In this document: positions 3,661 to 62,892 of the stretch, piece after piece
Layout of the letters: every line of letters starts with the position of its first letter
How positions within the stretch are numbered: the first letter of the stretch is position 1
From: Naegleria gruberi
Lineage: Eukaryota
Assembly: GCA_000004985.1 (NCBI GenBank)
Contig: GG738899.1
Length of the DNA: 64,000 nt
Direction: 5' to 3' (one strand)
Notes under the pieces: model-generated
What the model was told of the DNA's origin: nothing
Databases searched by the model: none
The model's input: the letters and a program-made list of their open reading frames with translations, nothing else
Made by a program: the position numbers and the translations under genes

Positions 3661-6600
3661 TTAGTTGAGTTTGGATTGTTTAATAAGGTCATTCTTAGAG
3701 TCGAGAATATCATGATAGGATGAATACTCTGAAGTAAAAACTAATCTAGAATAGCTATCTTGCAGATTCATCAATAATTCAGTCTTTAGATCTTTGATAC
3801 ATTCAGTGATTCTTTGGTTATGTGGAGATTTACCTTCCTTGCTGTTAGAAAGTTCAACTGAATTCGAATCTAAGTCCTTGAGAATTGATAGCAAATTCTT
3901 TCTCAAGTTAGATGGGATATTGACCTCATTCACACTTCCACTTTTAATGTAGGTTTCAAATAATGTGGTAAAGAAACTCTTTAGCTCTTTGATTCCTCCA
4001 TTCAAAGCACATTCGTTTTGTTTCAGATAGGTGTATAATTGAACATTTTCCAATGAAAATTCCTTCTTACAAAACCATTCCATCAATGAACAGCCTTCTT
4101 CACTATCCAAAAAGGTTACCAATTCAGAAAATTCTTCTTTTGACTCGTTTGATTTTCTTAATTTGGAAACTAACAACACTAATAACGAATATCCACCAAA
4201 TACAAAACAATAACTAGCCAAATATAAAATTTCAAATGCCATTGAAACAGAATCATTCACAATCATTCTCTTTTGAGATGAAATTCCAGATAATCCAATT
4301 ATTTGATTACAAACAAGGAAAATAAAACACACAACAAAGAAAATCATTTCCACTCTAAAGTAAAGTGGTGAATCAACTCTCGAATACCAATTGACCACTT
4401 GTTTGGCAGGTAAGAGGACGAAATTTGTTTTCTTCTTTGTGTCCATGTTTGTAATTTTTGAAATGATTTCGTCCTTTTTCTGGAAGAAAGAAATGGAATA
4501 ATCCAAAATAATTAATCCAACAATTAGTAAACAAATGGAAAGAATGATACAAGTAAATGAAATGGAAACCACATAGGTGTAATCTCGCCCTACAAGAACA
4601 TTGGTTCTCACTAAAATAACCCACAACGTCCAAAACATTAAGTTTCCAATAAATCCACTAATTAAACTGAGTAACATTATTCTAGTCGAGAGGAAACTCT
4701 TCACTACTTTGAGCACTTTTTCTCCTTCCTTTTTCTCCTTAGAATTGGAAAATATTGCCAATTTGTGATAGAAATATTTCAACAACTCAAATCTCGTCAC
4801 TTGATACAAATACGAAATGAAAGCAGTGATTGTAATAGAGTTTACAATAATTGTAATGATATTAGATAAGATATTAGCTGCCAAATCACCATATTCCCAT
4901 GAAACTGAACTTGACTGAGGTCCATTCACTTGAACCTGTCCAGAAAGCAAAACACTCTTCTGTGTAACCAACAACAATGCTGTCTGAATAATCATTGCTG
5001 ACATTCCAATAAAAGGTGTCACGAATCTACTCTTCACAGGTTGATAATTCCTAAAAACAATCAACAGAACCATCAACACACATGACACTATAAAGAAAAT
5101 ACTGCCATACACAATCTGGGTAATGTAAATTCCTTGCAATTCTTTCGGTTCTCCCTTAGTTGTGTTAAATTCCACAAATGCTGAGAATAAAGTTGTGTGA
5201 TTGCATTGACATTGAATATTGAGAGAGTTTGAAGAGAGGAATTCACATCCGTTGGATTCCCATGATTGGCCAGTTTCGTTCCAGTATTTACAGGCGATGG
5301 AGGAGTTTAGGATAGTGTTGTTATTGAGTGGGAGAGTGATGATGAAAGGTTTGGTTAAATCTTTGATTTCTAATAAGTTTCCTTCTTTGTAAATAGAGAA
5401 TTCTGTAAATGAAGAGAGGGAGTTTGTTAGCGAGAAATTATCTGGTTTGATGTTTTTCGAATATTTGATAAGGGACATACCAAATTGTTTCGAATAACCA
5501 TTATACGAACTCATAACATTATCCAGATCAATTCGTACATCTTTAAAATTGGATTTTTCTCCACCTTCGGTTTGCTCATTCTTAATAAAGTTTGAAGTGT
5601 AGATATCTACACTGCCAGAAGTAAAAATCCTTTTAGAAATGGGAGGATTAGTATTCGAAAGTAACTGTGGTGGCTCACTAAGAATTGCCAATTTTGAAAC
5701 ATGATTGTAAATTCTCGATACATTAGTATTACCCTGATCTAGAATACTTGTAGTTGCCATGAGAATACTGTTCAAATCACTGCTGGAAACAATCTTTTCT
5801 TTTACGAAACCAAACGAATCAAACTGATTCTTATAATTACTTGTTAGATTCAAAAAGTATGAATCAAGCTTTTGAGCAATAACAGAGCTAGCCTCTACCG
5901 ATTTGGAATTCAACAAAACCTTCTTCAACGTGTCAATTACCTGTGATGGATTTTGTTGTGGGATTTCTAATGACTTTACAATTTCCAATAAAACAGAATT
6001 ATCTGACAGAGAATCATATGGAACGACTGTTGAAAGTTTGGAATCTGATTTCAATCTTTCTAATAGAGAAGCCTTTGGGTCAGGAAATGGTAAAACTGAA
6101 AGGTCTCCTGCAAGAGCTTCAATATATTCGAAACCTTGCGAATCTTTAAGAAACAGCATCATGGTTATGTTATTTGTAAAATAGGGAAGATAAACAGAAT
6201 CTATCGAGGCTGTTTCTGTAACATATCGAGTAATTCTCACATTGCTCATGTCCTTGTATTGGAAACCTAAGGCATATTGTAAAGGAGACAGATTAGTCAA
6301 TAAAATAATGTCAAAACTAAACTTTACAAGAGTCTTGAGAGCATAAACTGTTGAGTTTCCACTAACAATTGTGAATTGATTTCTCAATAGTTGTGGCTTT
6401 GAATAAACTGGAATTGTTTCTCGAACAGTTGTCATTTGTAAACCAGACGAAAGTGTAACCTCAAGAGTCAAATCCGAAACTGTTCTCAAAGATTCAACAG
6501 AGAATGATAGTAATGGATTGAATTTGACTGAACTAATTCCATCATATTCTCCTTTTGTAATTCCACTTCTTGTTGATTCTAAAATGGATGTTGTCATTGT

Positions 6601-8166
6601 GATGGAATATGTTAGTGGAATTGAGCATTTTCCAATACAATTAAAAAAACTGGAACCGTTCTGAATATATTGAATTCCTTGAATGATACTATCCAAGTTA
6701 TGATTCTTGTCCTTAATGAAATAGGAAGGAAATCCAAATTTGGTAATTATTGGTAAACTATGAATGGTTACGTTAAAAGTGATGGAATTTGAAATTATCT
6801 TTTTAGAGATGGTGCTATTTGCTTCCACTGCAAACGTGTAACTTGCATCTGTTATTGTAAAATTACTGAAATACGACCAATTGAACTGTGGTTGAGTAAT
6901 TTGTGGATTACAATTCAAACATTTCCAAACAAAGGAAATTGCATTCAATTCTAAAGCACTCAGTGCTCTATTACTTAAATCATAAGTATCCAATTTCAAT
7001 TCTAAATTATTTCCCCTACCAATATGATAATCATTCAAAGGTAAAGAGATTCGAATATATTGTCCATCACATATGTCTCCAAAATATCCCTCCGTACAAG
7101 CACATCCTCCTGTTAACGCTGTTGTGTTAAAAGAACAGTATCCATGTGATGAACAAGCTCTGACATCACTACTGGCATAAAAAACTTCATTTCCATTGAA
7201 AACTCCTTTACAAAGTAAATTTTGACATTTGGGTCCATTAACTTTTACATTGTCATTGACATCATAACAGAGACAAGTGCCATCTGGTAAACATTTGCCT
7301 TTTCCACTACAAACATTTGGATCATCTTGTCTTATTCCATGACAACTTGACACATTACAAATAGGTCCATAAAATCCACTCTTACATGTGCAATAATTGG
7401 TTGAGGTACAATTTCCATTTCCTGCACAAACATTCACATCATTCCACAGAATTCCATTACAACTGTGAGTCGCATTCTCACACTCACTTCCATTATAACC
7501 ATTATAACACTCACACCTATTATACGAAACACATTTTCCATTAGAATTACATGCACCATCATTAATAGTCTTTGAAAAACAAACTGGATATTCACAAAAA
7601 AGTCCAACATACATAGCTGGACCAGTTGGAGCATATTTCGTCACTGGATTCCAACATACATTTCCATTCGAATCATAAATAATCATCTTTCTATCAGCTC
7701 CAATGATCAATCGAAATGGTCCACTACCTCCCATAGGACATGCACTACTCAATTCATGGGCAAAACTTCCACCTTGAAAGAGTTTCAATTGACCATTTCC
7801 ATTATCCAATACCATAGTAAATCCTGAACCTGCAACAGTAACACTCGAATAATCATCATCCCCTGTATCTGCATTAACCAATTTGAGTTGACCATTCAAT
7901 GTGAGTGTCATGTACTCATTTTGTTGTGGATTATAGAGACGAGCACCTTCTTGGATAGTTCCATTTATGGATGAGTCAATATAATTACCAGAGGATAGAT
8001 CTAAACAAATGCAATTTCCACTACTGCTAGAACAGATACCATTACCAGAGCATGTGCGAGGATCATTATAGGCGTTGCAATTTAGAGCGGCCAAAGATTG
8101 GTCAACCAAAGGAAGACACTGGACAAGGAATAGACAGAGAAACAAGAGACAAAAGAAAGATCTCAT
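3661..8166 (-). CDS. Adhesion-GPCR-like 7TM receptor with a C-terminal RGS domain, 1501 aa. Domain order is signal peptide, bulb-type lectin, EGF-like ×4-5, long Ser/Asn-rich stalk, GAIN/GPS motif, 7TM, RGS. No intron seen.
   Basis: Signal peptide: MRSFFCLLFLCLFLVQC. B-lectin triplet motifs: LTLNGQLKLVNADTGD, MVLDNGNGQLKLF, MIIYDSNGNVCW. Cys-rich EGF modules: CxCxxGYxGxxC, for example CSGKGKCLPDGTCLCYD. GPS motif: CKYWNETGQSWESNGCEFLSSNSLNIQCQCNHTTLFSAF. Seven hydrophobic helices follow. RGS-like box: FSLENVQLYTYLKQ…EVNIPSNLRKNL. Confidence 0.8.
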   Translation of the reverse strand: MRSFFCLLFLCLFLVQCLPLVDQSLAALNCNAYNDPRTCSGNGICSSSSGNCICLDLSSGNYIDSSINGTIQEGARLYNPQQNEYMTLTLNGQLKLVNADTGDDDYSSVTVAGSGFTMVLDNGNGQLKLFQGGSFAHELSSACPMGGSGPFRLIIGADRKMIIYDSNGNVCWNPVTKYAPTGPAMYVGLFCEYPVCFSKTINDGACNSNGKCVSYNRCECYNGYNGSECENATHSCNGILWNDVNVCAGNGNCTSTNYCTCKSGFYGPICNVSSCHGIRQDDPNVCSGKGKCLPDGTCLCYDVNDNVKVNGPKCQNLLCKGVFNGNEVFYASSDVRACSSHGYCSFNTTALTGGCACTEGYFGDICDGQYIRISLPLNDYHIGRGNNLELKLDTYDLSNRALSALELNAISFVWKCLNCNPQITQPQFNWSYFSNFTITDASYTFAVEANSTISKKIISNSITFNVTIHSLPIITKFGFPSYFIKDKNHNLDSIIQGIQYIQNGSSFFNCIGKCSIPLTYSITMTTSILESTRSGITKGEYDGISSVKFNPLLSFSVESLRTVSDLTLEVTLSSGLQMTTVRETIPVYSKPQLLRNQFTIVSGNSTVYALKTLVKFSFDIILLTNLSPLQYALGFQYKDMSNVRITRYVTETASIDSVYLPYFTNNITMMLFLKDSQGFEYIEALAGDLSVLPFPDPKASLLERLKSDSKLSTVVPYDSLSDNSVLLEIVKSLEIPQQNPSQVIDTLKKVLLNSKSVEASSVIAQKLDSYFLNLTSNYKNQFDSFGFVKEKIVSSSDLNSILMATTSILDQGNTNVSRIYNHVSKLAILSEPPQLLSNTNPPISKRIFTSGSVDIYTSNFIKNEQTEGGEKSNFKDVRIDLDNVMSSYNGYSKQFGMSLIKYSKNIKPDNFSLTNSLSSFTEFSIYKEGNLLEIKDLTKPFIITLPLNNNTILNSSIACKYWNETGQSWESNGCEFLSSNSLNIQCQCNHTTLFSAFVEFNTTKGEPKELQGIYITQIVYGSIFFIVSCVLMVLLIVFRNYQPVKSRFVTPFIGMSAMIIQTALLLVTQKSVLLSGQVQVNGPQSSSVSWEYGDLAANILSNIITIIVNSITITAFISYLYQVTRFELLKYFYHKLAIFSNSKEKKEGEKVLKVVKSFLSTRIMLLSLISGFIGNLMFWTLWVILVRTNVLVGRDYTYVVSISFTCIILSICLLIVGLIILDYSISFFQKKDEIISKITNMDTKKKTNFVLLPAKQVVNWYSRVDSPLYFRVEMIFFVVCFIFLVCNQIIGLSGISSQKRMIVNDSVSMAFEILYLASYCFVFGGYSLLVLLVSKLRKSNESKEEFSELVTFLDSEEGCSLMEWFCKKEFSLENVQLYTYLKQNECALNGGIKELKSFFTTLFETYIKSGSVNEVNIPSNLRKNLLSILKDLDSNSVELSNSKEGKSPHNQRITECIKDLKTELLMNLQDSYSRLVFTSEYSSYHDILDSKNDLIKQSKLN

Positions 8167-10558: not shown

Positions 10559-12763
10559 ATGAACAGGTGCCACTTGGTCAACCATGTTTTTCTTTTTCTT
10601 CTCATTGTTGTTATTGTATTCACATGTGGTACATGTAATGGCAACATGTTGCTCCAAGGCAACGATCAAACAGTCTATTACACACTTTACAATAGCATTC
10701 ATCAGAAGGACTATGTATTTCCATATACCTTCCTAAAAGCTTACATGTTGAAAGATAACCCAAAATTACTTTCGTTTAATGTAACAAGGAGTGGCGTTAT
10801 TGATTTATTGAAAGATGAGAAGATGGTAAAAAGTTTAAGAATTGGAATTGTCTCCTCGTGGGATACGACTAAAGACTATCGACAGATCATGAATGATTTC
10901 TTTCGATTTTATCAGCTAGAACACATTGTTGAACAAGTTTCGTTTACAATAGGTAGATATGGCACCTGTCAAGCAAATATTTTCGATAATTTTGACATTA
11001 TTTTCTCACACAACCAAATGTTTTATATGTGGATAAGGATTTTTAGAAATGGGAATCGATCTTACAAGATGGACGACTTTTTATCAGTAACCCTAGCTCC
11101 ATTCTATGTATTTGTTATTACAGAACCTTTGGGACCAATAGAAGAGTATACGGTTCATAATCTTGTATGGAACACAACGTGTAATGATGATGGACTTGAT
11201 TTTATTTCACAACTTGTAAATATTGCTCGTTATGAAACTAAGGTGGAGTACTTTTTCTACACTTCTAAAAGTGGAAATGGCACTCTTTTTGAGAGAGAAG
11301 ACAGATTGTTTATGAGTAGTATGAATGGATTTGATATCATGTATGTTTCTTCACAAGTAGCAGATAATTGGAAGAACAAGATTGTAAACTATTACAATAT
11401 TAATGAAAATACCTCATACCAATCATATCTCCTTCCTCAATGCACCGCTTGTAAGAATGATTATTGTGAAGAGTTTGTATTTGCTGATACTGATTACTGG
11501 ATTATACCTGTAACTCTTTTAATGATCATTCATTATTGTGTAATTTTCTTCTCTGGCTCTTTCAGAACACCAGCATTGAAGATTCGTCTGCTCATACCAT
11601 ATCTGTTACCGATTATTGTTTTTTACTTTGAGATCCACTTTTCTATTATCATTGTTTATAGTTGTAAAAATGTCAGAAATGCCATTAGCGGTTTCATTCT
11701 GACAGGTGGTATTCTGACCTATGCTTTTACAATTATTAGAGTATACTATCTTAGAAACTTGTATCACATTATCAATACAAGAAATATTGAATCCTCTATT
11801 AGGAATATTGCATTCCAAAGAAAGATTTCAGGTCCTCTACCTGGAATATTGCTCACTGGAGGAATAGCATTAATGTTAGTTCCAATATTTGGTTCACCAT
11901 ATTTGGTAGCTATTAGCTCTATAGATGAAATGGATAATTCAGTAATAGTTTTAAATGCACTCTATGCTGTATACATTGGACTTGGATGTTCAATTGGTGG
12001 TATTGCCATAGTATTGGATCTGGTATTCAATAGGAGAAAGTTGAAAGAAAAAGGATTGAAATATGTCCTATTCTTTGATGATCCATTCTTGATTCGTTTA
12101 GAAGTTTTCCTTCTTTCGTTATGTATTGTATTCATTGTTCTAATTTCAATCCCTAGTATTGATTTTCATTCAGCAAGATTTTTCAGATTTATGATTTATG
12201 TCATTGTCATTCTAAACTCTGGTCTTCTTGTATCTTTCAAGCAAATTATTACAAAAGTTTTCAATAGAAAGAAGAAGAATGAAATTTCCAACTTGGAAGT
12301 TTACATGCAAAACTCTGCATTCCAAATAATGATGAAAGAGTATTGTGTGAAAGAAATGTCTTTGGAAAATTATAATTGTTACATGTTTTTGGAACGATTG
12401 AAAGAGAAGACAGATCAATTGATAGATTTGACAGTAATCCAACAATTGGAGAAGGATTACTTCGCGCTTAATTCCATCTATGAGTTGAATATTCCATCAA
12501 ATGTAAGAAAATCATTCTATGAATTACTGAAACAAGTTGAAGATTCACACGCTCAACTCTGTGAAATGGCAGAAAGTAACATGACAGGCATGAACACTTC
12601 TCATGAAAATTCCTCTATACCAAAATATTCTGATTTGATAGAACTTGTGAACATCAATATTATTAGTAATTTGGGGGATACACTCTCAAGGTTGGAAGTA
12701 ACGAACGAATATCAGGTCTGGCAAGAATTGTATGATATCCAATCTAAATCATCAGTAATTTAA
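10559..12763 (+). CDS. 7TM receptor with C-terminal RGS domain, 734 aa. Shorter paralogue of the large 7TM-RGS genes.
   Basis: Signal peptide MNRCHLVNHVFLFLLIVVIVFTCGTCNG. An extracellular region of about 290 aa has Cys pairs. Seven hydrophobic helices run from about 11500 to 12240. The C-terminal RGS box reads MKEYCVKEMSLENYNCYMFLERLK…IYELNIPSNVRKSFYELL. Confidence 0.75.
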   Translation: MNRCHLVNHVFLFLLIVVIVFTCGTCNGNMLLQGNDQTVYYTLYNSIHQKDYVFPYTFLKAYMLKDNPKLLSFNVTRSGVIDLLKDEKMVKSLRIGIVSSWDTTKDYRQIMNDFFRFYQLEHIVEQVSFTIGRYGTCQANIFDNFDIIFSHNQMFYMWIRIFRNGNRSYKMDDFLSVTLAPFYVFVITEPLGPIEEYTVHNLVWNTTCNDDGLDFISQLVNIARYETKVEYFFYTSKSGNGTLFEREDRLFMSSMNGFDIMYVSSQVADNWKNKIVNYYNINENTSYQSYLLPQCTACKNDYCEEFVFADTDYWIIPVTLLMIIHYCVIFFSGSFRTPALKIRLLIPYLLPIIVFYFEIHFSIIIVYSCKNVRNAISGFILTGGILTYAFTIIRVYYLRNLYHIINTRNIESSIRNIAFQRKISGPLPGILLTGGIALMLVPIFGSPYLVAISSIDEMDNSVIVLNALYAVYIGLGCSIGGIAIVLDLVFNRRKLKEKGLKYVLFFDDPFLIRLEVFLLSLCIVFIVLISIPSIDFHSARFFRFMIYVIVILNSGLLVSFKQIITKVFNRKKKNEISNLEVYMQNSAFQIMMKEYCVKEMSLENYNCYMFLERLKEKTDQLIDLTVIQQLEKDYFALNSIYELNIPSNVRKSFYELLKQVEDSHAQLCEMAESNMTGMNTSHENSSIPKYSDLIELVNINIISNLGDTLSRLEVTNEYQVWQELYDIQSKSSVI

Positions 12764-33208: not shown

Positions 33209-33281
33209 CTCCCCCTGGTGGGCTCGAACCACCGACCTGCAGATTAACAGTCTGACGCTCTACCGACTGAGCTAAGGGGGA
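33209..33281 (-). tRNA. tRNA-Asn (GTT)
   Basis: Cloverleaf: 7-bp acceptor (TCCCCCT/AGGGGGA), D-arm GCTC-AGTCGGTA-GAGC, anticodon loop CTGTTAA, variable loop AGGTC, T-arm GGTGG-TTCGAGC-CCACC, discriminator G. One U·C pair at the top of the anticodon stem. A T4 run follows on the minus strand. Confidence 0.8.
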
Positions 33282-38745: not shown

Positions 38746-38990
38746 TTTTTATGTGTTTGAATTTTGACGTTTTCCTTTATCACATTTAAAGCAACCAAGA
38801 ATAGATTTGGTTTGATGTTAAAAAACTTTGAGTCGACGTTCACTGACTTGGTTCATTATTGTCGCCCTTACAAGTTATGAAAAGTTCGCAAATTGATTGC
38901 AAGTTGAACGAATAAGATCTAATAATGTTAAAAAGTCACAGTTTTTTACAACAATGTTCAGCTTTTGGTAACCAAAAAACTAAAAACATT

Positions 38991-39064
38991 TACCGACAAT
39001 GGGGCTCGAACCCACGACCCCAGGATTAGAAGTCCTGTGCTCTATCCAACTGAGCTATGACGGC
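38991..39064 (-). tRNA. tRNA-Arg (TCT), with an imperfect acceptor stem.
   Basis: GCCGTCATAGCTCAGTTGGATAGAGCACAGGACTTCTAATCCTGGGGTCGTGGGTTCGAGCCCCATTGTCGGTA. Perfect anticodon stem CAGGA/TCCTG with loop CTTCTAA. Canonical D and T arms. The acceptor has a G·U and a U·U pair. T5/T6 runs follow immediately on the minus strand. Possibly a slightly degenerate copy. Confidence 0.65.
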
Positions 39065-39441
39065 ATCACATAGAAATGGGTCAAAGGATTAAATTCTTAC
39101 TATTCACCTCAGACCACAAAGTAGGTATACCGTAGGTACCCACACTTTAATATTCTTTGAAATTTTATGGTGCATATTTATCTTGAAACATTGAAACAGA
39201 GCTATCATTGCAATTTGATTCCAGAAATGTTTAAGGTGTTACTCATGATAATGTGCTTAAATTTTGGTACGATTGTAGCCCCTTACAATAAATCTTCTAT
39301 TTTTAAAGGTCATGACATAAGGGTGAACTTTGCGCCATAAAACAAGATAAAACACGCCAAGATCTTGCTGAGACAAAATTTCAACAACAAAAAAACAAAT
39401 TAATTGATAATAATCATAATTATAATAATAATAATTAGAAA

Positions 39442-42720: not shown

Positions 42721-44591
42721 ATGCCTAGTATTCCCAAGTTGAGTCTTGGTCATCAAAGACAAGCTTCTGTTGACACAACCCATTCTAACAATTCTTCAGA
42801 CGAAACAACTTCTAATTCTTCTTCAACTCTTAGCAATAATTTTCTGAGTGGAACTATTTCATCCGACAATTTAATTTCACAATTCATTGAACCGTTGAGT
42901 AATGCAAGAAAATCTAACGCCAAAATTCATTGGAAGTGTGTCCATGTGATTTCACATCCTGATTTTGAAAGAAAGTAAGTGTGATGATCAAATTTAAAAT
43001 ATTAACTTTAACAAGTGCTTTAGATGATGATTCCTCCTATCATACTACCTTACAGCTTATTCCATTCAGCAGTATGGATGTTGCCACACAAAAATCTAGA
43101 TTTGCCATTATTCACTCCAGTAAGAAGGGTGTTTCAGTGTTGGAATTAATTAATGAACTTACTCAATCAACAGATAATAAGATTGGAAATCAATGGATTG
43201 TAAAGTATCACACAAAATTAGAGTCCAATGGTTTCGGATCAAGTGCAGTATTAACAAAACAAACTACAGAAAAGAAGGAAAAGATTGTTTTCTTTGGTGG
43301 TTACTTCCATGAAAATCAAGAGAGTAATGACAAGTCTTCCTTGTTCCAATCTCAACAAAGATACTCTCTTGAATCCATTAGTCACAATAGAACCCTAACC
43401 AGTAGAATGAAAAAGCTATTCAAATCCTCGAAAGGAGATGTATCTGCTTGTCCTCACCCATCTAACATGTTTTTCAAATACAGATTTGATAAGTATGAGT
43501 TTGGTTTTTCGAAATCTGGGGAAGAAAATTCAGGATCTGAAAAAACACTATCCAGAAAGCCATCATTCATGACTGGTACAACCAATTACTGGCCTGCAAC
43601 TCATGCTAACCACAAAATTTTGAGTGTTGGAAAAGAAATTTATGTATTTGGAGGACATTACATGAAGTGGAATGAACTTACTGAAGATAATCAAAACGAT
43701 GCAGAGAAGAGGACATCTTTTGTCTATATTTTCGATACAAAGAGAAAGAAGTTTGAACAGCCAAAGTTAGTAAGCTTTACACTTCCAAAACCTCAATCAT
43801 CAGTTAGTACTACTGTCAGCACTGATTCACTTGATAGTGCTTCAACACCAACAGCAGAAACACATAAGGATATTCAACTTCCAATTGAAAATGAAGTTGA
43901 TTCAAAGCAAAAGGAAAGAAGAAATTTCTTACTTGATAGTATTAAATCTTTCAGTAGAGAAAGAAAGAACTCATTCCATGATGGAGATAAAATGATGACA
44001 GACCTTCGTGATATTGCTCCAATGAATAGATTTGGTCACAATGTTGTAAATGTAAACGGTGTAGCATATATTTATGGTGGTAAATTAAGAAAGCAATACA
44101 ATAGTGGTAATCCAGACCAAGTCAATCCTCATTCAGATGATTCTGTTTACAGCTTTAATTTCAGAACTGGTCAATTCTCTAGGTTAAGAATTAAAAGCCA
44201 TGACAAGCCACATCCTAGAATGTTCCATGCCATGGTTGAAATTCCAGAAAACAATTGTTTCCTTATGATGGGTGGTCAAAATGTAACAGAGCAAGTTCTT
44301 GAAGATGAAACACTAAGTATGATGATGGAAGAAGTTAAAATGAAAAAGGGGACTGAAACAGAGGCAACAAACTTCTTGGATGATTGTTATGTTTTCGATA
44401 TTCTGAGATCAGAATGGTCAAAAGTCAAACAAAGTGGTCACTTGCCACTCAATGCATCAAACTTTGGATTTGAACATGAAGCAACTAGAGTACCTGTTGC
44501 CCTAGCTAGAACTAAGGAAGGAGATTTCTTGTGTGTTGTAAAGAATGGTCTTGGATCATTGGAAGTCTATTTAGGACAATCTAATTTTTAA
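42721..44591 (+). CDS. Kelch-repeat beta-propeller protein, 609 aa. Exons 42721-42974 and 43016-44591, intron about 42975-43015.
   Basis: A 41-nt intron (GTAAGT…AACAAG, phase 2) joins …HPDFER(N)ALDDD… in frame, for 610 codons. Repeated Kelch blades carry GG/W motifs (IVFFGGYFHEN, IYVFGGHYMKWNE, AYIYGGKLRK, FLMMGGQNV). The N-terminus is Ser/Thr-rich. Confidence 0.7.
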
Positions 44592-44731: not shown

Positions 44732-47700
44732 TTACATTAAATTGGATTGTTTCAATAATTCTTCTCTGCTGTTACTGGAAGTGGAATATTCTTCAAACTC
44801 TTGTGTATAGAAAAATCTAGAGAAAGTATCTGATAGATTGATTAATATTTGATCTGTAAGGGATTTGATATTATCAACAACCATATCAGATAAATTTGCA
44901 GGAAGGGAGTTCTTTTTTGTTTTGGAAACTGATTGCTTCTCGTCTACTAATTCGAGATTATTTGCATTTTTCAACTTTGCCACCATTGAGGCAAAAGATT
45001 TTCTGCAATCAGATGGAATATTCACTTCCCTAATAGAACCAGATTTCACATAATCATCATAAATATTGTTAATAAACTCTATTATTTCTGCCAGTCCCTT
45101 TTCGATAATATTGGAGTTTTTGGTTAAATGTAAATAGAGTTGAAGATTTTCAAGTGAAAACTCTTTTCTGCAGAAACTATCAAATATCTTTAGGAATATT
45201 GGATTTTCTAGGTATTGATTGATTTCTACCTTCTCTTGTTCATTCTTTTCACCATTCCACACTTTCATTCTTTGGGCTAACAATACAAGAAGGGAATAAC
45301 CTCCATACACTAGCATGTATGTAACAATATGTAATACCTCGAAAATGATTGAAACCGAGTCATAGGTCACTACAGTTCTTACTATAGCCAATGGTGCTAA
45401 TTTTGTTTCGGTATAACCTGTTAGTAACAGCCTATAGTTAAGACTAGCCATTCCCAAAGCTTGTACAATGACAAGGAAAATAAATGAAATAACAAACAAA
45501 ATCATTTCAGCTCTGAAGAACAGTGGAGAATCAGCCTCTACAAACCAAGAAAAGAGGAAATTGAAAACCTTACCCAAAATATTTTGAGCTTTCATCTTTT
45601 GAGATTCTTTAGATCTGTTGGTTGTTTCATTCTTGTTCAAATTTCTCTGATACCATGTCATTATCAAATCTACTGAAAATATACAACAAACAGCAAAACC
45701 AATAAATAGAATTGCAACAGTATAAGAAATGGAAACTATTTGGGTGTATTCAGGGCCAGTAATCACGTTTGTTCTAACTAAAATAACCCACAAAGTCCAA
45801 TATGCTAAATTGATAAATGCAAAAGTAATCAACATAATGCTGTAGAATTTTGCAGATATCAGATGCTTGATAAAGTGAAGAAATCTACTTGCAGTCACCT
45901 TATCGTTCATTAAGGATAATTCATTATAGAAATATTTTAAAAATTCAAATCTCATAACCTGATACAAGTATGTCATGATTGCACACAGGGTTATGGTGTT
46001 TACAATAATTGTAATAATATTTGCCAATATAGAGGAAGCTAGATAACTATTGGCATCGTTTGATTGGGTAGAGGAAATCAAAACACTTCGTTGAACAATG
46101 AGTAGAAGAGAGCTTTGGGTAATCAAAGCTGCCATTCCCAAGAAAGGGGTTGTGAATCTGCTCTTTACAGGTTGTTTGTTAGCATTCAAAGCTAATCCTA
46201 TCAAGACTGCAACAGCACAAATCAAGTAAACTGAACCTAGGGCAATCTGAGTACCATGAACACCAATAAATTGATCGACATATGGTTCAAATGTAATACC
46301 CACAGGAACTTGCTCTATAAAAGCAGAAAATAAAGTGGTATGAGTACAAGAGCAAACAATTTCACCAGTTGCCGAGTTTAAGGATTTCAAAGTGCAACCG
46401 TCAGTATCCCATTTGGACATGGTTTCATTCCAATATTTACAAATGATTCTACTATTATTGCTAGAGCTAATGGGGGTGTTTGAATTGAATGAAATTGAAA
46501 AAGGTTTCACAAGGCTCTTCAAATTCATGCTGTTGCCGTTCCTATGCATTGTGAAATCCTTAGCATTGGCAGCGAAGGTGGCATTAGTCTCTGGATACAC
46601 TATTCCATTAAAGGATACTACAGATAAACCAACTTCAGTGGAGAAGGAGGAGTATTGTGCAAGAATGGAATCAGCTTCAAATAAAATTGAGTCAAACCGA
46701 TTTGTTACCGTTGAAGTTGAAGCACTGTCTTTCGAAAAACTTGAGTATGTAATATTAATATTGGCTGAAGTTATAATTGTTGAAGGCAAGAGTGTATCAC
46801 TTGAAGTAAGGAGGGTTGGTATTGAGGAAATTACTAAAAGTGAAGACAATTTGGTCGCTAAACGACTATCCAATCCCTTTTGAACTAAATTGGATGATGT
46901 TGAAAGAATCGTTTTCGTATCTTCATCTGAGATCTTGGAAGACACAAATCCCTGTTGGCTCTTTTGAGTTTTGTAAGAATTTACAGAATTTCCAAGGTAA
47001 GAATCCAGGTTTTGTATAATTAAATTGGACACAGAGGTAGTGAGATTTTTTTCAGACATAGAATACAGTGATCCAAGTCCAACTGTTGGATTTTCCGCTG
47101 AAATAGTGAAATTCTGCATAGCCATTAACAGTAATTGGTCATATTCATCCGATGATCCAGTGAATGATGAGTCATATGGAACCACTTTAGCAATTCTTGA
47201 ATCGGTCTTCATTAGAGACATTGCCTCACTTGGGGTGCTGTAGAATCTAAGCATTGTCACAACTGATTGAACTAAAACTGACTGTACATTAGATAAGTTA
47301 TCCTTTGCAAAGACCACCAAGTCTGTTGGCTTGTTTTGTTCCATATTTTTTGTGAAAGGCAAATAAGTCAGTAATTGTTGGCCCATAGGTACAAATTCAG
47401 TTAATCGTAGAGTCTGGTTGTTGTAAACAATACCTATTGCAAAAGAAAGCGGGGATTGATCTGCAGAGAAAATTTTCCAGTCGCTTTCGTTTTCCTGAAT
47501 ACTAAACAAGGTATACAGACCAACTCCTCTGTTAGGAGATATATTTAGATTTGAATTTGATGACTTTCTAATTATTGAGCTGGCTACAGGAATGGTGTGA
47601 TTAATCACCATAGTGTTTTGGATAGCACCAGTAATTGTAAAGGAAAGGGTAGCAAAATTAGTAGAACCTTCAAGTTTTACCAATCCTTTGACATTAACAA

Positions 47701-49564
47701 AGGGGTTGAGACTAATACTGGTGAAATTAGAGTTTTTGTTTGCTGTTCCTCTTGTAGTAATTTGATCAGAGCTTGAATATATTCTTTCCTCATACACAAG
47801 CTTCCATGAAATAGAGATGATAGTTGAACAGCTATTACATTCGTTTTGGTTAATTAATGCCAAAAATCTTTTTGTGTCAATGTTGAATCCTGTCAGGACA
47901 CTGTCAATCATTTGATTTTGTGATAGGGATATAGCTTTGATTATATCAGTAACATTGGAGGTGCTATCAAAACTTGAATTATTTGCATAAGTTGAATTGA
48001 ATGTGCTATTATCTACCCCAATTGGTGGTATTACAGTAACTGTAAAATTAACAGAATTAGAGGTTCTAATTATTGCTCCTTCTTGTATATGATTCACCCT
48101 AACAGTTACAATGAAGGTTCCAAGGCTTGAAGCATTAAATAACAATGAACTGAAATTATTATCAATTGGCATTGCACATTTTTCGCAATTCCATATAAAA
48201 TTAATCCCATTAGTAATAGTTTCTGAAACATTAATCTGTAGAACTTGAGATTTTCCTATCTCAACATCATAATTTGAATTAATTGCATTGATAAGAAAAG
48301 ATGAATTGAATTGGCATTGATTTCCCACGAATCCTACTCTACAACTGCATGTATCAGTTTTTGCGCAGTTGCCTCTTCCACTGCAAACAGATGAGTCGTT
48401 TGATAATTTTCCATAACAATAACTTATCAGACATTGTGGATCTGAGCTATTTGTATCACAATTCATTAAATTGAGTCTTCCTATCTGTAGGGTATTCGTA
48501 TCTGTGAAATAGAGAGTTCCGTTTGAATGGACATATAATCCAACAGGTTTGCTAACAGAGATTCCATATTTAGATTCTGCCAATATCGTTCTTATTGTAT
48601 TCTTCTCTATATTAAATACTTTGATTTTTCCTGAATCAGTATCAGCAATATATAGCATTTTACCATCTGGACTCAAAGCTATCCCTTGAGGATTATTCAA
48701 GTTGTGACTAAGAGGATCCAAAGCATCATTTTCAGAAGTGAAAGGGTTTTCTCCTGACCCCACAACAGTTTCCAATAATTTGCTAGAAACGTTATATCTC
48801 TTGATCAAGTTTGTTTCACTATCACAAATGTAGAGGATATCACTTGAAGACATTGCCAGAGAAGTTGGTTTTTGTAGGCCTCCTTGTTGTATCCCTAAAT
48901 CAATCTCAATCTCATTTACAAATCCATCCGTGCCAACTCTAAATATCTTGTCATTGCTGGTAACATAAAGAATTGAGGAATAGAGAGCCAATCCCTTTGG
49001 TTCAATAAGATTAATATGCGCCTTATCATAAGGTGGCGCATATTCAGCCGACCTGTTTCCACTTCCAACATAGTTTTGCAATATCCCTGATGATAGTACT
49101 AGTTTTTTGATGAAATCATTATTAGTGTCAGTAAATAGTACAGTATCCGAATCCATAAAAACAACAGAAGATGGTGAATTTAGAGGAGAAGTAGGACCAA
49201 AAGCAGAACCACCAAGGTCAATAGTAGCATTACCTGAATAACCTGCTCCAGCCAAAACATATGCTGGTGCACCATTATCTGAGAAAAACAACAATCTATG
49301 ACTTCCACTATCAACAACAATAATTGTGTTAGCATCCTTAACTAAAACCGAAGTTGGAGACTTTAAAAGTGAAGTATCCACTGGAAACAAATCCGCCGAT
49401 GTTACAACAGTAGTATCAATAATTGTTGTATTGACATCGATAAGTTCTGGAGGAAGAGGAATTGGTGTTGGTGAGGGTCCAGGAGCCGGCGCAAAATCAG
49501 CAACGATAACTGATGTCAGAACAAGCACAAGAACCAAAAGAAATAGAGGTGTGTATCTTGACAT
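44732..49564 (-). CDS. Adhesion-GPCR-like 7TM receptor with a C-terminal RGS domain, 1610 aa. Domain order is signal peptide, NHL-type beta-propeller repeats, EGF-like module, long Ser/Thr/Asn-rich stalk, GAIN/GPS motif, 7TM, RGS. Paralogue of 3661-8166.
   Basis: Signal peptide: MSRYTPLFLLVLVLVLTSVIVA. NHL-like blades: LYVTSNDKIFRV, LYICDSETNLIKRYNV, LYIADTDSGKIKVFNIEKN, LYFTDTNTLQIGRLNL. EGF module: CSGRGNCAKTDTCSCRVGFVGNQC. GPS motif: CKYWNETMSKWDTDGCTLKSLNSATGEIVCSCTHTTLFSAF. Seven TM helices. RGS box: FSLENLQLYLHL…REVNIPSDCRKSF. Confidence 0.8.
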   Translation of the reverse strand: MSRYTPLFLLVLVLVLTSVIVADFAPAPGPSPTPIPLPPELIDVNTTIIDTTVVTSADLFPVDTSLLKSPTSVLVKDANTIIVVDSGSHRLLFFSDNGAPAYVLAGAGYSGNATIDLGGSAFGPTSPLNSPSSVVFMDSDTVLFTDTNNDFIKKLVLSSGILQNYVGSGNRSAEYAPPYDKAHINLIEPKGLALYSSILYVTSNDKIFRVGTDGFVNEIEIDLGIQQGGLQKPTSLAMSSSDILYICDSETNLIKRYNVSSKLLETVVGSGENPFTSENDALDPLSHNLNNPQGIALSPDGKMLYIADTDSGKIKVFNIEKNTIRTILAESKYGISVSKPVGLYVHSNGTLYFTDTNTLQIGRLNLMNCDTNSSDPQCLISYCYGKLSNDSSVCSGRGNCAKTDTCSCRVGFVGNQCQFNSSFLINAINSNYDVEIGKSQVLQINVSETITNGINFIWNCEKCAMPIDNNFSSLLFNASSLGTFIVTVRVNHIQEGAIIRTSNSVNFTVTVIPPIGVDNSTFNSTYANNSSFDSTSNVTDIIKAISLSQNQMIDSVLTGFNIDTKRFLALINQNECNSCSTIISISWKLVYEERIYSSSDQITTRGTANKNSNFTSISLNPFVNVKGLVKLEGSTNFATLSFTITGAIQNTMVINHTIPVASSIIRKSSNSNLNISPNRGVGLYTLFSIQENESDWKIFSADQSPLSFAIGIVYNNQTLRLTEFVPMGQQLLTYLPFTKNMEQNKPTDLVVFAKDNLSNVQSVLVQSVVTMLRFYSTPSEAMSLMKTDSRIAKVVPYDSSFTGSSDEYDQLLLMAMQNFTISAENPTVGLGSLYSMSEKNLTTSVSNLIIQNLDSYLGNSVNSYKTQKSQQGFVSSKISDEDTKTILSTSSNLVQKGLDSRLATKLSSLLVISSIPTLLTSSDTLLPSTIITSANINITYSSFSKDSASTSTVTNRFDSILFEADSILAQYSSFSTEVGLSVVSFNGIVYPETNATFAANAKDFTMHRNGNSMNLKSLVKPFSISFNSNTPISSSNNSRIICKYWNETMSKWDTDGCTLKSLNSATGEIVCSCTHTTLFSAFIEQVPVGITFEPYVDQFIGVHGTQIALGSVYLICAVAVLIGLALNANKQPVKSRFTTPFLGMAALITQSSLLLIVQRSVLISSTQSNDANSYLASSILANIITIIVNTITLCAIMTYLYQVMRFEFLKYFYNELSLMNDKVTASRFLHFIKHLISAKFYSIMLITFAFINLAYWTLWVILVRTNVITGPEYTQIVSISYTVAILFIGFAVCCIFSVDLIMTWYQRNLNKNETTNRSKESQKMKAQNILGKVFNFLFSWFVEADSPLFFRAEMILFVISFIFLVIVQALGMASLNYRLLLTGYTETKLAPLAIVRTVVTYDSVSIIFEVLHIVTYMLVYGGYSLLVLLAQRMKVWNGEKNEQEKVEINQYLENPIFLKIFDSFCRKEFSLENLQLYLHLTKNSNIIEKGLAEIIEFINNIYDDYVKSGSIREVNIPSDCRKSFASMVAKLKNANNLELVDEKQSVSKTKKNSLPANLSDMVVDNIKSLTDQILINLSDTFSRFFYTQEFEEYSTSSNSREELLKQSNLM

Positions 49565-52545: not shown

Positions 52546-53649
52546 TCAGCAACATCTTCTATGAACAATGGTAGGTCCACTCTCTTCATATTCTTCTCTT
52601 TTGATACACATGTTATTAAAGTTCGATAAGGATGCAAATATGCAACCTCCCTTCCAAGTAAGATAATTTCTATTTGGTAAATCTTTAACGTGTATCTTCA
52701 TTGTTGGTGCTAATTCACTCAATTCCTTGTGCATTCTCTCAGCAAATCCCCTAAACATAGTCGTTCCACCAGCCAAGACTATATTAGAAAAGAATTCTCT
52801 CCTCATATCCAAGTCAGATTTTCCAATAGAGTTGAAAACTATTTCAGCAACACCTGCTTCCTCCATTCCAAAAATATTTGGACTAAACAATACTTCTGTG
52901 CTTTTAAATCGTTCCTTTCCAATATTTATGATGGTCCCATCTGGTAATTCATAATCAATTAAAATGGATTCCTCGCTTAATTTAAGCTCTTCCTCATAAT
53001 TCAGAGCAACGTAGCCGAACAATTCCTTAATTTCTCTTACAATTCTTTTTTCTGATGTTGTTCTAAACTCATAATTTCTTGACTTGAATAACTCCACCAT
53101 ATTATCCACTATAACATCTCTGGACACAAATTTCAATTCCAAAACTGAATTATGGAGAGCATGACCTTCATAAATAGGAATAGCTCTCGTACAACTCTCT
53201 CCACCATCCAGAACTACTCCAGTGGTATTTCCTGATCCGTACAAGGCCAACACACCCTGTAAAGCAACATACATTCCTCCAAAATTGAAATCTTCAAACA
53301 TTATTTGAGTCATCTTTTCTCGATGACTTTTCGGAACGCCACAATTTTCACTCATTAAAATTAATTCATCTTCTCTCGATCCATTAAATTTATTAAATCC
53401 ATAATTCCAAATTCTTGTCATATCATCCCAATCAGTGATGATTCCATACTCCATCGGGTATCTTGCCTGAATAATTCCTCCCTTATTGGCTGCATCCTCT
53501 CCCACATAATCACCCTTATCACCATATCCTTGCCAATTATAAATTTGTTTAGGTTTTCCTAATAGCGTCGGAAAGTCTAGAGGTAATTCAGAGTTAGAGT
53601 AGCCGAGTTTGATCTTGAAGGAACCATTATCAACAATGAGTGTTTGCAT
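52546..53649 (-). CDS. Actin-family protein (divergent actin / Arp1-like), 367 aa.
   Basis: About 50% identity to actin by eye across the whole length: LIVDNGSFKIKLGY…YVGEDAANKGGIIQARYPMEYGIITDWDDMTRIW…HREKMTQIMFEDFN…YEGHALHNSVLELKFVSRDV…ELPDGTIINIGKERFKSTEVLF…VLAGGTTMFRGFAERMHKEL…KGGCIFASLS…EYEESGPTIVHRRC. Confidence 0.85.
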   Translation of the reverse strand: MQTLIVDNGSFKIKLGYSNSELPLDFPTLLGKPKQIYNWQGYGDKGDYVGEDAANKGGIIQARYPMEYGIITDWDDMTRIWNYGFNKFNGSREDELILMSENCGVPKSHREKMTQIMFEDFNFGGMYVALQGVLALYGSGNTTGVVLDGGESCTRAIPIYEGHALHNSVLELKFVSRDVIVDNMVELFKSRNYEFRTTSEKRIVREIKELFGYVALNYEEELKLSEESILIDYELPDGTIINIGKERFKSTEVLFSPNIFGMEEAGVAEIVFNSIGKSDLDMRREFFSNIVLAGGTTMFRGFAERMHKELSELAPTMKIHVKDLPNRNYLTWKGGCIFASLSNFNNMCIKREEYEESGPTIVHRRCC

Positions 53650-57266: not shown

Positions 57267-57858
57267 TTTTATACAAATTGATTGGGCATGAATAACAGTG
57301 GAAGACAATTGTTACAAACCTTTATGAAAAGGAACAATTATTTTAATTATTTGTTGATAGGAGTTATTTCATTCACTGACGAAATGTTCTTATGGAAATC
57401 ATCAAGTTTTTTACTCATTGGAGAAATAAAAGAGAATATTGATAGCAAATTCATTTCCGTGCTACTCTTCAAGTATTGTAAACGATATCTTCAACAATGT
57501 GTTATCATTATAATATATTAATTATTATCATCTTCCCACCTATTGATATATTATAAAACTGTGTGAGTTTTAAGATTTCAATGTAAATCCAAAATATTTG
57601 TTTTAAGGGCTTCAACACCTATGGTCATCAACTTGTTTTTGAACTTCCATAGTTTCATAGAGTTCTAGTCTATGATTGAAGAATAAGCACTTCTTGCCCA
57701 CAGTTGAACTACTGGCCGTATTATGCAAACACCGAACGGAAAGGAAATCGAACGCATTAATTAAGCAGCTCAAAAAACATTCAATTTCATGTAATCATCA
57801 TCCTCGCTACTCGATGCTTTATATCTTTTCACAAACAAAAAAAACATTCAAATTCATA

Positions 57859-59402
57859 ATGACCCATCCAATGAATAATTCTCATGAAGAACATCTCCCT
57901 CATGGTGAGGAGAGGGATGAGGATGCAATTTTCACAACATTGGAGTGTGATGAAATTATCACAGCCAACCATAAAGATAAATATCACACCAATAGACTCT
58001 GTTGGAATAGAGCAATTAATGCATTTCCGAGAGTTATTACCTACTGTAAAACTGTTGAACATGTTCGTAAGTGCATTGCTTTTGCAAGAGAGCATGCATT
58101 ACCAATCAGAATTAGGTCTGGGGCTCACAGTTATGAGGGATTTTCAACGGGAGATGAGGTCATGATCATTGATGTGAGTCGTATGAAAAGTATTGAACTC
58201 GATATGCAAAAGTTGGAGGCAAGAATTGGTGCAGGTGTTCAAAATATTGAAATATTCACAGCACTCAAAGATAAAGGACTGATTGCTGTTGGTGGGGCAT
58301 GTCCAACTGTGGGTGTTTGTGGCTTTGTTATGGGTAAGTGTTTATTAGTAGTCACTTGTTTACTAATGTAACATTGTACATGCAATTATCAATCTATTGA
58401 AATAATGAAGGTGGTGGTTGGTCCTTCTCTTCAAGATACTTTGGTCTTGGGTGTGACAGTGTTATCGAGTTTGAAATTGTTGACTATGAAGGGAATTTAT
58501 TAACAGTCAACTCTGAATCCCATCCAGAATTGTTTTGGGCATGTAGGGGAGCAGGTGCTGGAAATTTTGGAATTTGTGTCTCAATGAAACTGAAAGTTTA
58601 CAATACATTTGATAGAGCAACACTGATTACCTTAAATTATCCAAATTGTTGCGAGAAGAAAATTGTTTCGAAAATTAAGGCATGGCAAAACTTTTTCAAA
58701 ACTTGTGATTTGAGATTTAATGGGAAAATTAATATTTATAATTGTTCAAAGGATGGAATTGGATTTAACTTTCTGATAGTGTTTTATGGAGGTGCAGATG
58801 AGGCCCACTCGTTGCTTCAACCATTACTGAATGATTGCTGTCCAGAGTATGAACCTTCGATAACAGCAGTGAAATATCCAGATTCATCCATTGATTTATC
58901 AATGCAAGAGTCATCAGTTTATAATACCTTAAAGACGATATGTGATATTCATCCAGATTATGAGAGTTTTAAATCAACAGGAGGATTTATGAGTAGAGAT
59001 TTAGAGACAGAAGAAATTCAAAATCTAATTGAGATTGTGAAAAGGAAAGCAACTGGGTGTACATATACAGCATTTTCTATTTATGGTTTGGAAGGAAATA
59101 TTCGAAAAGTTCCTCATGATTCGACAGCATTCCCATATAGGCAAGCTCAACAAATGATTGGACTCCAAACACAATGGGAGGATGAGCAATATGCAAAGGA
59201 GAATAAGGAATGGCTTGTTGATACAATTTTTAAACATATTCTACCAATAACTGATGGATTTTTTACAAACTTTCCCTTAATTGAATTGAAGGATTATAGA
59301 AAACAGTATTATGGAAGAGAAGAGTGGAGACAAGAGAAACTCTCAAAAGTTAAATATCAATATGATCCATTAAGAATTTTCTCTCATTCTCAAGGAGTGT
59401 AG
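57859..59402 (+). CDS. FAD-linked oxidoreductase, berberine-bridge-enzyme-like, 488 aa. Exons 57859-58333 and 58411-59402, intron about 58334-58410.
   Basis: FAD-binding PCMH-type region (…VEHVRKCIAFAREHALPIRIRSGAHSYEGFS…IDVSRMKSIELD…ARIGAGVQNIEIF…LIAVGGACPTVGVCGFVMG|GGGWSF…). C-terminal BBE-like domain (…EWRQEKLSKVKYQYDPLRIFSHSQG). A 77-nt intron (GTAAGT…ATGAAG) joins in frame, for 489 codons. Confidence 0.8.
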
Positions 59403-62856: not shown

Positions 62857-62892
62857 TTTTTAATTCAAAATATCAAAGTAAAATGAAATTTT

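Follow-up and report, generated by a model that had tools for sequence, protein, structure and literature searches.

The 64,000-nucleotide stretch of Naegleria gruberi contig GG738899.1 analyzed here (the window) contains a 4.8 kb unbroken open reading frame (ORF) that raises two questions: what kind of receptor it encodes and whether it belongs, as claimed in a preliminary description of the window, to a locally expanded family in which sensing modules are swapped on a conserved chassis. This gene, referred to here as A (44732..49564, minus strand, as for all its features given below), is an intact N. gruberi cell-surface receptor gene, with a single exon that starts at ATG and codes for an NHL-EGF-stalk-GAIN/GPS-7TM-RGS protein of 1610 aa. 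Its product matches the NCBI entry "predicted protein [Naegleria gruberi]" with 100% identity and full coverage. We also considered a pseudogene or an annotation artifact, which was ruled out by the uninterrupted ORF, the invariant functional residues and the exact match to the NCBI model.

Three Pfam domains (NHL, GPS and RGS) were found in A above their gathering cut-offs, and hydropathy analysis revealed a signal peptide (residues 1-22, 49499..49564; N-terminal hydrophobic segment, KD 2.76) and seven transmembrane (TM) segments between residues 1100 and 1431. The N terminus is placed outside by the signal peptide, the distribution of N-x-S/T sequons (29 counted in the ectodomain versus 2 in the tail) and the richness in K/R of the intracellular loops ICL1 and ICL3, following the positive-inside pattern. 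The 1610-aa NHL-EGF-GPS-7TM-RGS receptor of the preliminary description is thus borne out by the ORF, the Pfam matches and the seven TM segments, with a weak match for the single EGF, and the four strings quoted from it are all present in the protein (LYVTSNDKIFRV at residue 199, LYIADTDSGKIKVFN at 304, LYFTDTNTLQIGRL at 351 and CSCTHTTLFSAF at 1071). TRF retrieved no tandem repeats. A homolog search with the full-length protein was dominated by bacterial NHL proteins, and the paralog in the same window (gene B, see below) was absent from the matches. No relative more than 50% identical and no close ortholog of A were found in the searched collections; its closest relatives share 36 to 40% protein identity, so that synonymous sites are saturated.

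The N-terminal module is a six-bladed NHL beta-propeller (about residues 62-366, 48467..49381), detected by Pfam NHL at 5.2e-15 (55.1 bits versus a cut-off of 20), with partial Pfam matches to SGL/lactonase propellers. The blades number six in the AF2 model, each made of four strands, with pLDDT values mostly above 90, and the Foldseek matches were Pizza6, NHLRC2, Thin, TRIM71 and the teneurin NHL domain (TMt of up to 0.86, E values down to 1e-16), with TMt values of 0.84 to 0.86 for the six-bladed Pizza6 and 0.75 to 0.81 for the NHL domains of Thin and TRIM71. The NHL assignment proposed earlier was therefore upheld by both the HMM search and the model. The propeller is followed by a single EGF-like domain (residues 378-419, 48308..48433), which gave weak matches to Pfam EGF_2 and EGF_Teneurin (0.01 to 0.014) and is 40 to 47% identical to the EGFs of paralogs. 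It is at this EGF that the collinear homology between A and B begins.

Downstream of the EGF there is a family-specific beta-rich stalk (residues 425-769, 47258..48292), recognized by its homology to the stalks of paralogs and by the AF2 model, in which residues 550-772 are beta-rich with a pLDDT of 80 to 90 and residues 419-540 are of low confidence. The stalk alone had no direct match in Pfam. Homologous stalks are present in B, P0046, P0047, P0053, P0064 and others, and the stalk of A aligns to the region of P0064 that corresponds to a Pfam REJ match (8.5e-7); by this transitive homology only, its second half can be described as REJ-like. Pfam REJ was detected in 4 of 28 family members (best E value of 2.9e-31), and a PKD domain in one of the 28.

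The stalk leads into a GAIN domain (residues 770-1085, 46310..47257) composed of subdomain A, which is helical, and subdomain B, a beta-sandwich, and its GPS motif (Pfam GPS, 2e-8, residues 1041-1080, window positions 46325-46444) lies directly upstream of TM1, the arrangement expected of an adhesion G-protein-coupled receptor (GPCR). The final beta-strand of the modeled domain is the Stachel-like TTLFSAFI, from which a candidate Stachel peptide can be derived in synthetic form (TTLFSAFIEQVP). The putative autoproteolysis triad H1075-T1076↓T1077 (46334..46342), located within the GPS motif, fits the H-X-S/T triad given as canonical in PMC13062082, with cleavage itself being a prediction, and the residue at -1 is Thr, not the usual Leu/Met/Ile. 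Conservation of the motif was evaluated in 72 members: the His and the Thr at +1 are present in all 72, Thr at -1 in 69, F+3 in 71 and F+6 in 70. The four Cys, the two Trp and the H-T-T of the GPS are kept in 69 to 72 of the 72 sequences, and likewise the F+3/F+6/hydrophobic+7 pattern. A literature search for the GAIN domain in Naegleria retrieved no paper.

The seven-transmembrane (7TM) domain that follows (residues 1093-1437, 45254..46288) has a GPCR fold, with seven long helices modeled by AF2 at a pLDDT of about 85 to 95. The secretin/adhesion-type domain (Pfam 7tm_2) was not found in A, the isolated 7TM region gave nothing meaningful against Pfam and it showed no similarity specific to the 7TM domains of adhesion or secretin-class receptors, so Stachel docking cannot be transferred to A by homology. 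The cytosolic C terminus is an RGS box (residues 1448-1606, 44747..45223), supported by Pfam RGS (residues 1450-1535, 1.2e-8, 35.8 bits versus a cut-off of 23.9), by phmmer and PDB profile matches to RGS5, RGS10 and RGS16 (down to 5e-14, with about 1e-13 for the PDB profiles) and by Foldseek matches to RGS8, RGS1 and RGS16 (TMt of 0.65 to 0.72, with 0.72 for RGS8). Its motifs EFSLEN, EVNIPS and DTFSRF align with EFSEEN, EVNID and DSYSRF of RGS5/RGS10. Residues E1468, E1472, N1473, N1515, N1576 and R1583 are invariant in the alignment of 28 family sequences, and all of them except N1576 correspond to residues that contact Galpha in the RGS4-Gialpha1 complex. Some 30 residues are inserted in the box between EVNIPS and DTFSRF, and this insertion was modeled at low confidence (pLDDT of <50 at chassis residues 776-780). 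Homology to the assayed N. fowleri proteins (see below) suggests that the box acts as a GTPase-accelerating protein (GAP).

The preliminary description had counted three family members within 46 kb of the window. The first of the two neighbors, B (3661..8166, minus strand, 1501 aa), has a lectin-like N terminus and at least three EGFs upstream of the same stalk-GAIN/GPS-7TM-RGS series, with Pfam GPS and RGS as in A. Both proteins align from the EGF to the C terminus (about 31 to 36% identity over 1343 aa, E=3e-164), with identities of 30% in the stalk, 32 to 37% in the GAIN domain, 43% in the 7TM and 38% in the RGS box, confirming the common chassis that had been proposed. Judged by this collinearity from the last EGF onward, B is a true paralog of A. 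Their N-terminal modules are unrelated. The lectin module attributed to B did not appear directly, as its N terminus had no lectin match in Pfam. Nevertheless, this region is homologous to those of P0050, P0052 and P0055, and P0050 has a sub-threshold B_lectin match (9.5e-6), so that a bulb-lectin-like nature can be inferred through the sub-threshold matches of its paralogs.

The case of the second neighbor, C (10559..12763, plus strand, 734 aa), is different, and the pairwise alignment that united A and B extended only to its tail. The whole protein had neither a GPS nor an RGS match in Pfam, and the tail alone gave a weak RGS match (0.018). Hydropathy indicates about seven hydrophobic segments between residues 306 and 565. 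Similarity to A was limited to the RGS-like tail, extending no further upstream than the final TM helix (30% over 189 aa, 4e-14), and no significant alignment was found outside the tail. The relative closest to C is P0163 of N. gruberi, with which it shares 38% identity over 653 aa. Lacking both a GPS motif and a homologous stalk, C belongs to a different, GPS-less 7TM-RGS subfamily, and the claim of three members is not supported.

To place A and B in a wider frame, a profile built on A residues 770-1610 was used for a family search. At least 72 representative sequences covered the chassis from GPS to RGS, and the ectodomains mounted on it included NHL, EGF, lectin-like, REJ, PKD or RCC1-like modules, which supports family-wide module shuffling on a conserved chassis. 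This part of the preliminary description (sensing module swapped, chassis kept) stood. Twenty members were identified in N. gruberi, namely, A, B and 18 others distributed over at least 14 other scaffolds. N. fowleri members were also recovered (P0052 at 2.5e-173 over the full profile, P0089 at 1.1e-50, and P0199), and NHL-bearing members occur in both N. fowleri and Willaertia.

In the tree, A and B fall inside a seven-member subclade with 99.5% bootstrap support, with only 15% for their sisterhood, and the best paralogs of A (P0047) and B (P0046) are both on other scaffolds. Together with the dispersal of the family, this leaves the proposed local expansion at most weakly supported. The N. 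gruberi genome is reportedly about 41 Mb. If this size and some 40 genes in the family are assumed, chance alone would place about 1.4 gene pairs within 37 kb, so the proximity of A and B is not significant on its own. Considering only the five N. gruberi genes of the subclade, the expectation is about 0.02, and their proximity gives a weak hint of a tandem duplication long ago. The statement that the lectin had been replaced by NHL holds in that the N-terminal modules differ, but not in its direction: P0046 and P0048, the nearest relatives of A and B, carry NHL propellers, and for this reason the lectin in B, rather than the NHL in A, may be the replacement. A and B are probably old paralogs from a single subclade of a large family, scattered over the genome, whose diversification would have come from exchange of the modules N-terminal to the last EGF.

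As for its function, A is probably a type-I-oriented 7TM-RGS receptor in which the GAP activity of the RGS box brakes Galpha and an external cue is read as a change in that activity. From outside in, its parts would be the six-bladed propeller with one EGF, the REJ-like stalk, the GAIN domain, the 7TM and the cytosolic RGS, with the last GAIN strand (T1077-LFSAFI) as a Stachel-like tethered peptide. The RGS tail would keep membrane Galpha in the GDP state, a brake that would matter given that spontaneous GTP loading occurs in some Naegleria Galpha subunits. When the propeller engages a ligand or a surface, perhaps with release of the ectodomain at H-T↓T and exposure of the Stachel, the 7TM conformation or the location of the receptor might change and, with it, the access of the RGS box to Galpha. 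The cue would in this way alter GAP activity and not nucleotide exchange. Autoproteolysis and Stachel signaling in A are inferred from the features of the GPS described above.

A bolder version, which we propose only tentatively and think unlikely to hold in full, would treat these proteins as "inverse adhesion GPCRs", with a GAIN/Stachel switch placed on a non-class-B 7TM of a discoban family and controlling a fused GAP instead of a guanine nucleotide exchange factor (GEF). Under force or ligand acting on the propeller, the N-terminal fragment would come off at H-T↓T, and the exposed TTxFSAF would switch the action of the RGS box on a self-activating Galpha. If this were true, the GAIN-7TM tethered-agonist unit would be far older than Metazoa/Amorphea and would not be bound to one 7TM class. 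Less probable still is a self-limiting conventional GPCR, in which the 7TM, activated by Stachel or ligand, would be the GEF for a slow-exchanging Galpha and the RGS tail a built-in off-switch that sharpens termination. Such a role is disfavored by the lack of sequence similarity of A to any of the GPCR classes with established coupling to G proteins, and we know of no GEF activity for AtRGS1, the best-studied 7TM-RGS protein (also summarized in PMC9283941).

The RGS box itself bears on a further alternative, an adhesion or scaffold protein signaling independently of G proteins, whose non-GAP RGS-like tail would dock partners in the manner of the RGS-homology domains of GRK and axin. GAP function has been lost in some RGS-homology domains (de Mendoza et al. 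2014, PMC3971589), and the insertion in the box of A is unusual; however, every canonical Galpha-contact motif is present and invariant in the 28 members, and the isolated RGS boxes of N. fowleri 7TM proteins are canonical GAPs sensitive to the switch-1 G-to-S change (PMC9283941), making this a very improbable reading. We give hardly any credence to a channel-partnered relative of polycystin-1 or PKDREJ, which the REJ-like stalk, the GPS and the REJ and PKD matches within the family might recall, since A has seven TM helices and not eleven, no PLAT or polycystin-cation-channel match and an RGS box at its C terminus.

The preferred reading, a receptor that modulates a GAP, can be compared with several known systems. 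The propeller has the same six-bladed fold and repeat signature as those of teneurins, NHLRC2 and TRIM-NHL proteins, and the pairing of NHL with EGF_Teneurin in paralogs of A recalls the module pairing of teneurins; unlike in all of these, in A the propeller sits at the N terminus of a 7TM protein as its sensing module. Compared to metazoan adhesion GPCRs (ADGRL3/latrophilin, ADGRB3/BAI3, ADGRG6/GPR126 and ADGRE5/CD97), the 7TM of A is not detectably 7tm_2, its GPS has Thr at -1 and its output in the cytosol would come from a fused GAP and not solely from G-protein activation. Seven TM helices with a cytosolic RGS are also found in AtRGS1 and other 7TM-RGS proteins from plants, Trichomonas, chytrids and filastereans. 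Unlike A, AtRGS1 is, to our knowledge, practically devoid of an ectodomain and has no GAIN/GPS domain. Receptors of the 7TM-RGS type are thought to be the main readout of cues where Galpha self-activates, and we know of no ligand or gating mechanism for those outside plants. For the AtRGS1 type, it has been proposed that they restrain self-activating Galpha and that an extracellular cue relieves or modulates the GAP (PMC9283941, PMC3971589).

The closest counterpart comes from the sister species N. fowleri, in which 28 7TM RGS proteins have been described, several with GPS, EGF and lectin domains (Bosch et al. 2022, J Biol Chem, PMC9283941). Their RGS domains are GAPs on NfGalpha2, 3, 5 and 7, self-activating subunits included (PMC9283941). 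Nf 7TM RGS1-4 and the 24 others share with A the architecture class (a complex EGF-bearing ectodomain, GPS, 7TM and C-terminal RGS), and the N. fowleri proteins P0052, P0089 and P0199 belong to the same HMM family. That study names EGF and lectin/carbohydrate-binding ectodomains, the words "NHL" and "propeller" have zero occurrences in it, and the GAIN fold, the H-T↓T signature and the REJ-like stalk were outside its analysis (PMC9283941). Since the receptor family is already published for N. fowleri, A is a member of it and not a new kind of system. Its genomic value lies in extending the N. fowleri family to N. gruberi and in documenting a modular ectodomain repertoire. As a clean, intron-free and full-length case from a Naegleria species that is non-pathogenic and can be cultured, A offers a convenient construct with which to ask whether GAIN cleavage and signaling by a tethered peptide can regulate a GAP, since it combines an NHL propeller, a well-defined fold for ligand binding, with a GAIN domain whose H-T↓T/Stachel signature is invariant in the family and an RGS box whose catalytic contacts are intact.

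Gene A (44732-49564, minus strand) is an unbroken 1,610-codon frame with an ATG start, lying in eukaryotic DNA of low GC content (about 33%) with densely packed genes. The gene is already deposited, without a name, and its product is identical over its full length (100%) to an NCBI entry, "predicted protein [Naegleria gruberi]," from a 331-kb scaffold. All four peptides quoted in the preliminary description occur in this product, at residues 199, 304, 351, and 1071. Pfam searches gave NHL above threshold (5.2e-15), partial matches to SGL and lactonase (both six-bladed-propeller families), a weak match to a single EGF (0.01), GPS at residues 1041-1080 (2e-8), and RGS at residues 1450-1535 (1.2e-8). 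Hydropathy revealed a signal peptide at the N terminus and seven hydrophobic segments, all within residues 1100 to 1431. The ectodomain contains 29 N-x-S/T sequons and the tail 2, and K/R residues cluster in ICL1 and ICL3, a topology consistent with an ectodomain outside and an RGS box inside.

As for the surroundings, a Kelch-repeat propeller gene (42981-44591, plus strand) is convergent with gene A, their stop codons only ~140 bp apart, and 3 kb upstream of the gene A start is a conventional actin gene (52546-53649, minus strand; Pfam Actin, 6e-95). Elsewhere in the window, a 1,776-amino-acid ORF (33415-38745, minus strand) contains 37 DUF4116 repeats (Pfam E = 0, 1,257 bits) and has a tRNA on each side (33209-33281 and 38990-39065, both minus strand), namely, tRNA-Asn(GTT) and tRNA-Arg(TCT). 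FAD_binding_4 and BBE domains in consecutive same-strand ORFs (57676-58371 and 58530-59402, plus strand) probably belong to one intron-split berberine-bridge-enzyme-like oxidase gene. GC skew reaches +0.27 at 26001-28000, over an NF-YA-like gene (26230-27819), and GC content falls to 24.5% in the final 2 kb (62001-64000).

An AlphaFold2 model of residues 23 to 775 (pLDDT of 73) contains six propeller blades of four strands apiece, with pLDDT above 90, that match the NHL propellers Pizza6, NHLRC2, Thin, TRIM71, and teneurin (TMt up to 0.86); together with the Pfam match, this bears out the NHL assignment. C-terminal to the propeller come the EGF, a low-confidence segment, and a confident beta-rich domain (550-772). 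The stalk gave no direct Pfam match and aligns with a region of the family member P0064 in which Pfam detects a REJ domain, a domain found in 4 of 28 family members (best E value of 2.9e-31). Since the link runs through P0064, the stalk may be called REJ-like only transitively.

A separate model, covering residues 770 to 1610 and built from a 28-sequence family alignment (mean pLDDT of 81.9), shows in order about seven helices, a beta-sandwich whose final strand is TTLFSAFI, seven long membrane helices, and a helical bundle. When it was compared to the PDB with Foldseek, adhesion-GPCR GAIN domains ranked first, the best being inactive CD97 (1.8e-8), with BAI2, BAI3, CELSR1, ADGRL3, and GPR126 at 1e-7 to 3e-5; the tail matched RGS8, RGS1, and RGS16 (TMt of 0.65 to 0.72). 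The family profile searched against PDB sequences found RGS5, RGS10, and RGS16 at about 1e-13 and ADGRL3 at 7e-12, the latter match running from GAIN subdomain B through the GPS into TM1. At the level of predicted structure, the GAIN fold is thereby confirmed. The 7TM part has a generic GPCR fold that is not of class B2, and Pfam 7tm_2 matched none of the family members examined.

Conservation at the GPS was counted over 72 family sequences spanning GPS to RGS. The cysteines C1057, C1071, and C1073, as well as W1052, G1056, H1075, T1076, T1077, F1079, and F1082, are kept in 69 to 72 of them, and the resulting F+3/F+6/hydrophobic+7 pattern is one we take to resemble the tethered-agonist pattern of adhesion GPCRs. 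PMC13062082 gives H-X-S/T as the canonical motif for autoproteolysis, so that the H-T|T of gene A fits, although a Thr at -1 is unusual. From this residue conservation, GAIN cleavage and Stachel signaling would be predicted. In the RGS box, EFSLEN and EVNIPS align with EFSEEN and EVNID of RGS5, and DTFSRF aligns with DSYSRF of RGS10. Residues E1468, E1472, N1473, N1515, N1576, and R1583, invariant in 28 members, correspond to the Galpha-contact positions of the RGS4-Gialpha1 complex. Four further residues are invariant in 28 members: R1205, at the cytosolic end of TM3; D1299, close to the same end of TM5; and F1350-R1351, preceding TM6. E1353, which completes F1350-R1351-x-E1353, is common to genes A and B. 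These charged residues at the cytosolic TM3/TM5/TM6 ends (window positions about 45504-45952) are placed in a way that recalls the DRY/ionic-lock arrangement of class A GPCRs.

A profile of the GAIN/GPS-7TM-RGS chassis of genes A and B, used in an exhaustive HMMER search, retrieved 669 representatives at E<=1e-3 and 84 at E<=1e-30, the latter mostly spanning the entire GAIN-7TM-RGS profile. The best matches were N. gruberi paralogs scattered over many scaffolds and proteins from N. lovaniensis, N. fowleri, Willaertia magna, and metagenomes. NHL-like propellers occur at differing positions in about 10 further members and were confirmed by Pfam in P0046 and P0048 (N. gruberi), P0089 (N. fowleri), and P0108 (Willaertia), the last with the same NHL-EGF-GPS-7TM-RGS order; the NHL variant is therefore neither unique to gene A nor specific to N. 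gruberi. About 48 members carry EGF arrays, and others carry REJ, PKD, or RCC1-like propellers. The proposal that sensing modules are exchanged on a conserved chassis is thus supported across the family.

Gene B (3661-8166, minus strand; 1,501 amino acids) aligns collinearly with gene A from the EGF to the C terminus (E = 3e-164), with identities of 40% in the EGF, 30% in the stalk, 32% in GAIN-A, 37% in GAIN-B/GPS, 43% in the 7TM, and 38% in the RGS; gene B has no counterpart of the propeller. Residues 25 to 200 or so of gene B look like a three-lobed bulb-type (B_lectin) domain. The first 175 residues share homology with modules of the family members P0050, P0052 (N. fowleri), P0055, and P0072. 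As Pfam sees B_lectin only in such modules of paralogs (P0050, 9.5e-6, below the gathering cutoff) and gave no lectin match for the gene B copy, a lectin identity is plausible, with weak support.

Gene C (10559-12763, plus strand; 734 amino acids), 2.4 kb from gene B with a radical-SAM gene (8445-9503) intervening, had been counted as a third member. Its product carries a signal peptide and about seven hydrophobic segments as well as an RGS-like tail, but Pfam found no GPS, and similarity to gene A is confined to the tail (4e-14), with nothing significant outside it. Its closest relatives are GPS-less proteins of 600 to 700 amino acids from N. gruberi and Willaertia (best, N. gruberi P0163, 38% identity over 653 amino acids). 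Gene C is a 7TM-RGS protein of a separate subfamily, outside the GPS chassis family, and contributes nothing to the argument for local expansion.

For genes A and B, support for local expansion is weak. The chassis of gene A matches the paralogs P0047, P0046, P0049, and P0048 better than gene B, whose own best match is P0046, and these lie on 665-, 381-, and 694-kb scaffolds rather than the 331-kb scaffold of the pair. Bootstrapping of an NJ tree gave 99.5% support to the subclade {A, B, P0046, P0047, P0048, P0049, P0051} and 96.5% to {P0046, P0047, P0048}, with only 15% for A and B as sisters. For a genome of about 41 Mb and a family of about 40 genes, we estimate that chance alone would place one or two pairs of members within 37 kb of each other; for two of the five N. 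gruberi subclade genes to be as close as A and B, the expectation is about 0.02, so their proximity may stem from a tandem duplication long ago. Overall, the family looks old and dispersed, not like the product of a local burst. A second GPS-7TM-RGS pair, P0060 (EFC37047) and P0065 (EFC37054), lies a few genes apart on a 209,908-bp N. gruberi scaffold; like A and B, they are non-sisters in the chassis tree.

N. fowleri encodes 28 7TM RGS proteins, several with GPS, EGF repeats, and lectin/carbohydrate-binding domains "reminiscent of the adhesion GPCRs," and the isolated RGS domains of these proteins are canonical GAPs on several NfGalpha, self-activating ones included (PMC9283941). The best-supported reading of gene A follows from this: by homology, the tail should be a membrane-anchored GAP on Galpha, whose activity or access to Galpha would respond to changes at the propeller and in the GAIN domain. 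The fuller version, a GAP gated by GAIN and Stachel, we consider rather unlikely as a whole. Rival readings make the protein a GPCR of the GEF type that carries its own off-switch, or a scaffold whose RGS box is non-catalytic. A third rival, a polycystin-like protein, is disfavored, since there are seven TM helices and no PLAT domain.

Gene A belongs to the Naegleria 7TM-RGS family, and its architecture class is already known, from 7TM-RGS proteins in general (Bradford 2013 and Anantharaman 2011, as cited in PMC3971589) to the 2022 N. fowleri study (PMC9283941), which makes no mention of an NHL propeller subtype. What is added here is this subtype, the predicted GAIN fold with a family-invariant H-T|T/Stachel-like signature, the putative REJ-like stalk, and the assignment of the 7TM to a generic fold. 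The protein is like adhesion GPCRs at its extracellular end, although it is not class B2, and like AtRGS1 at its cytosolic end.
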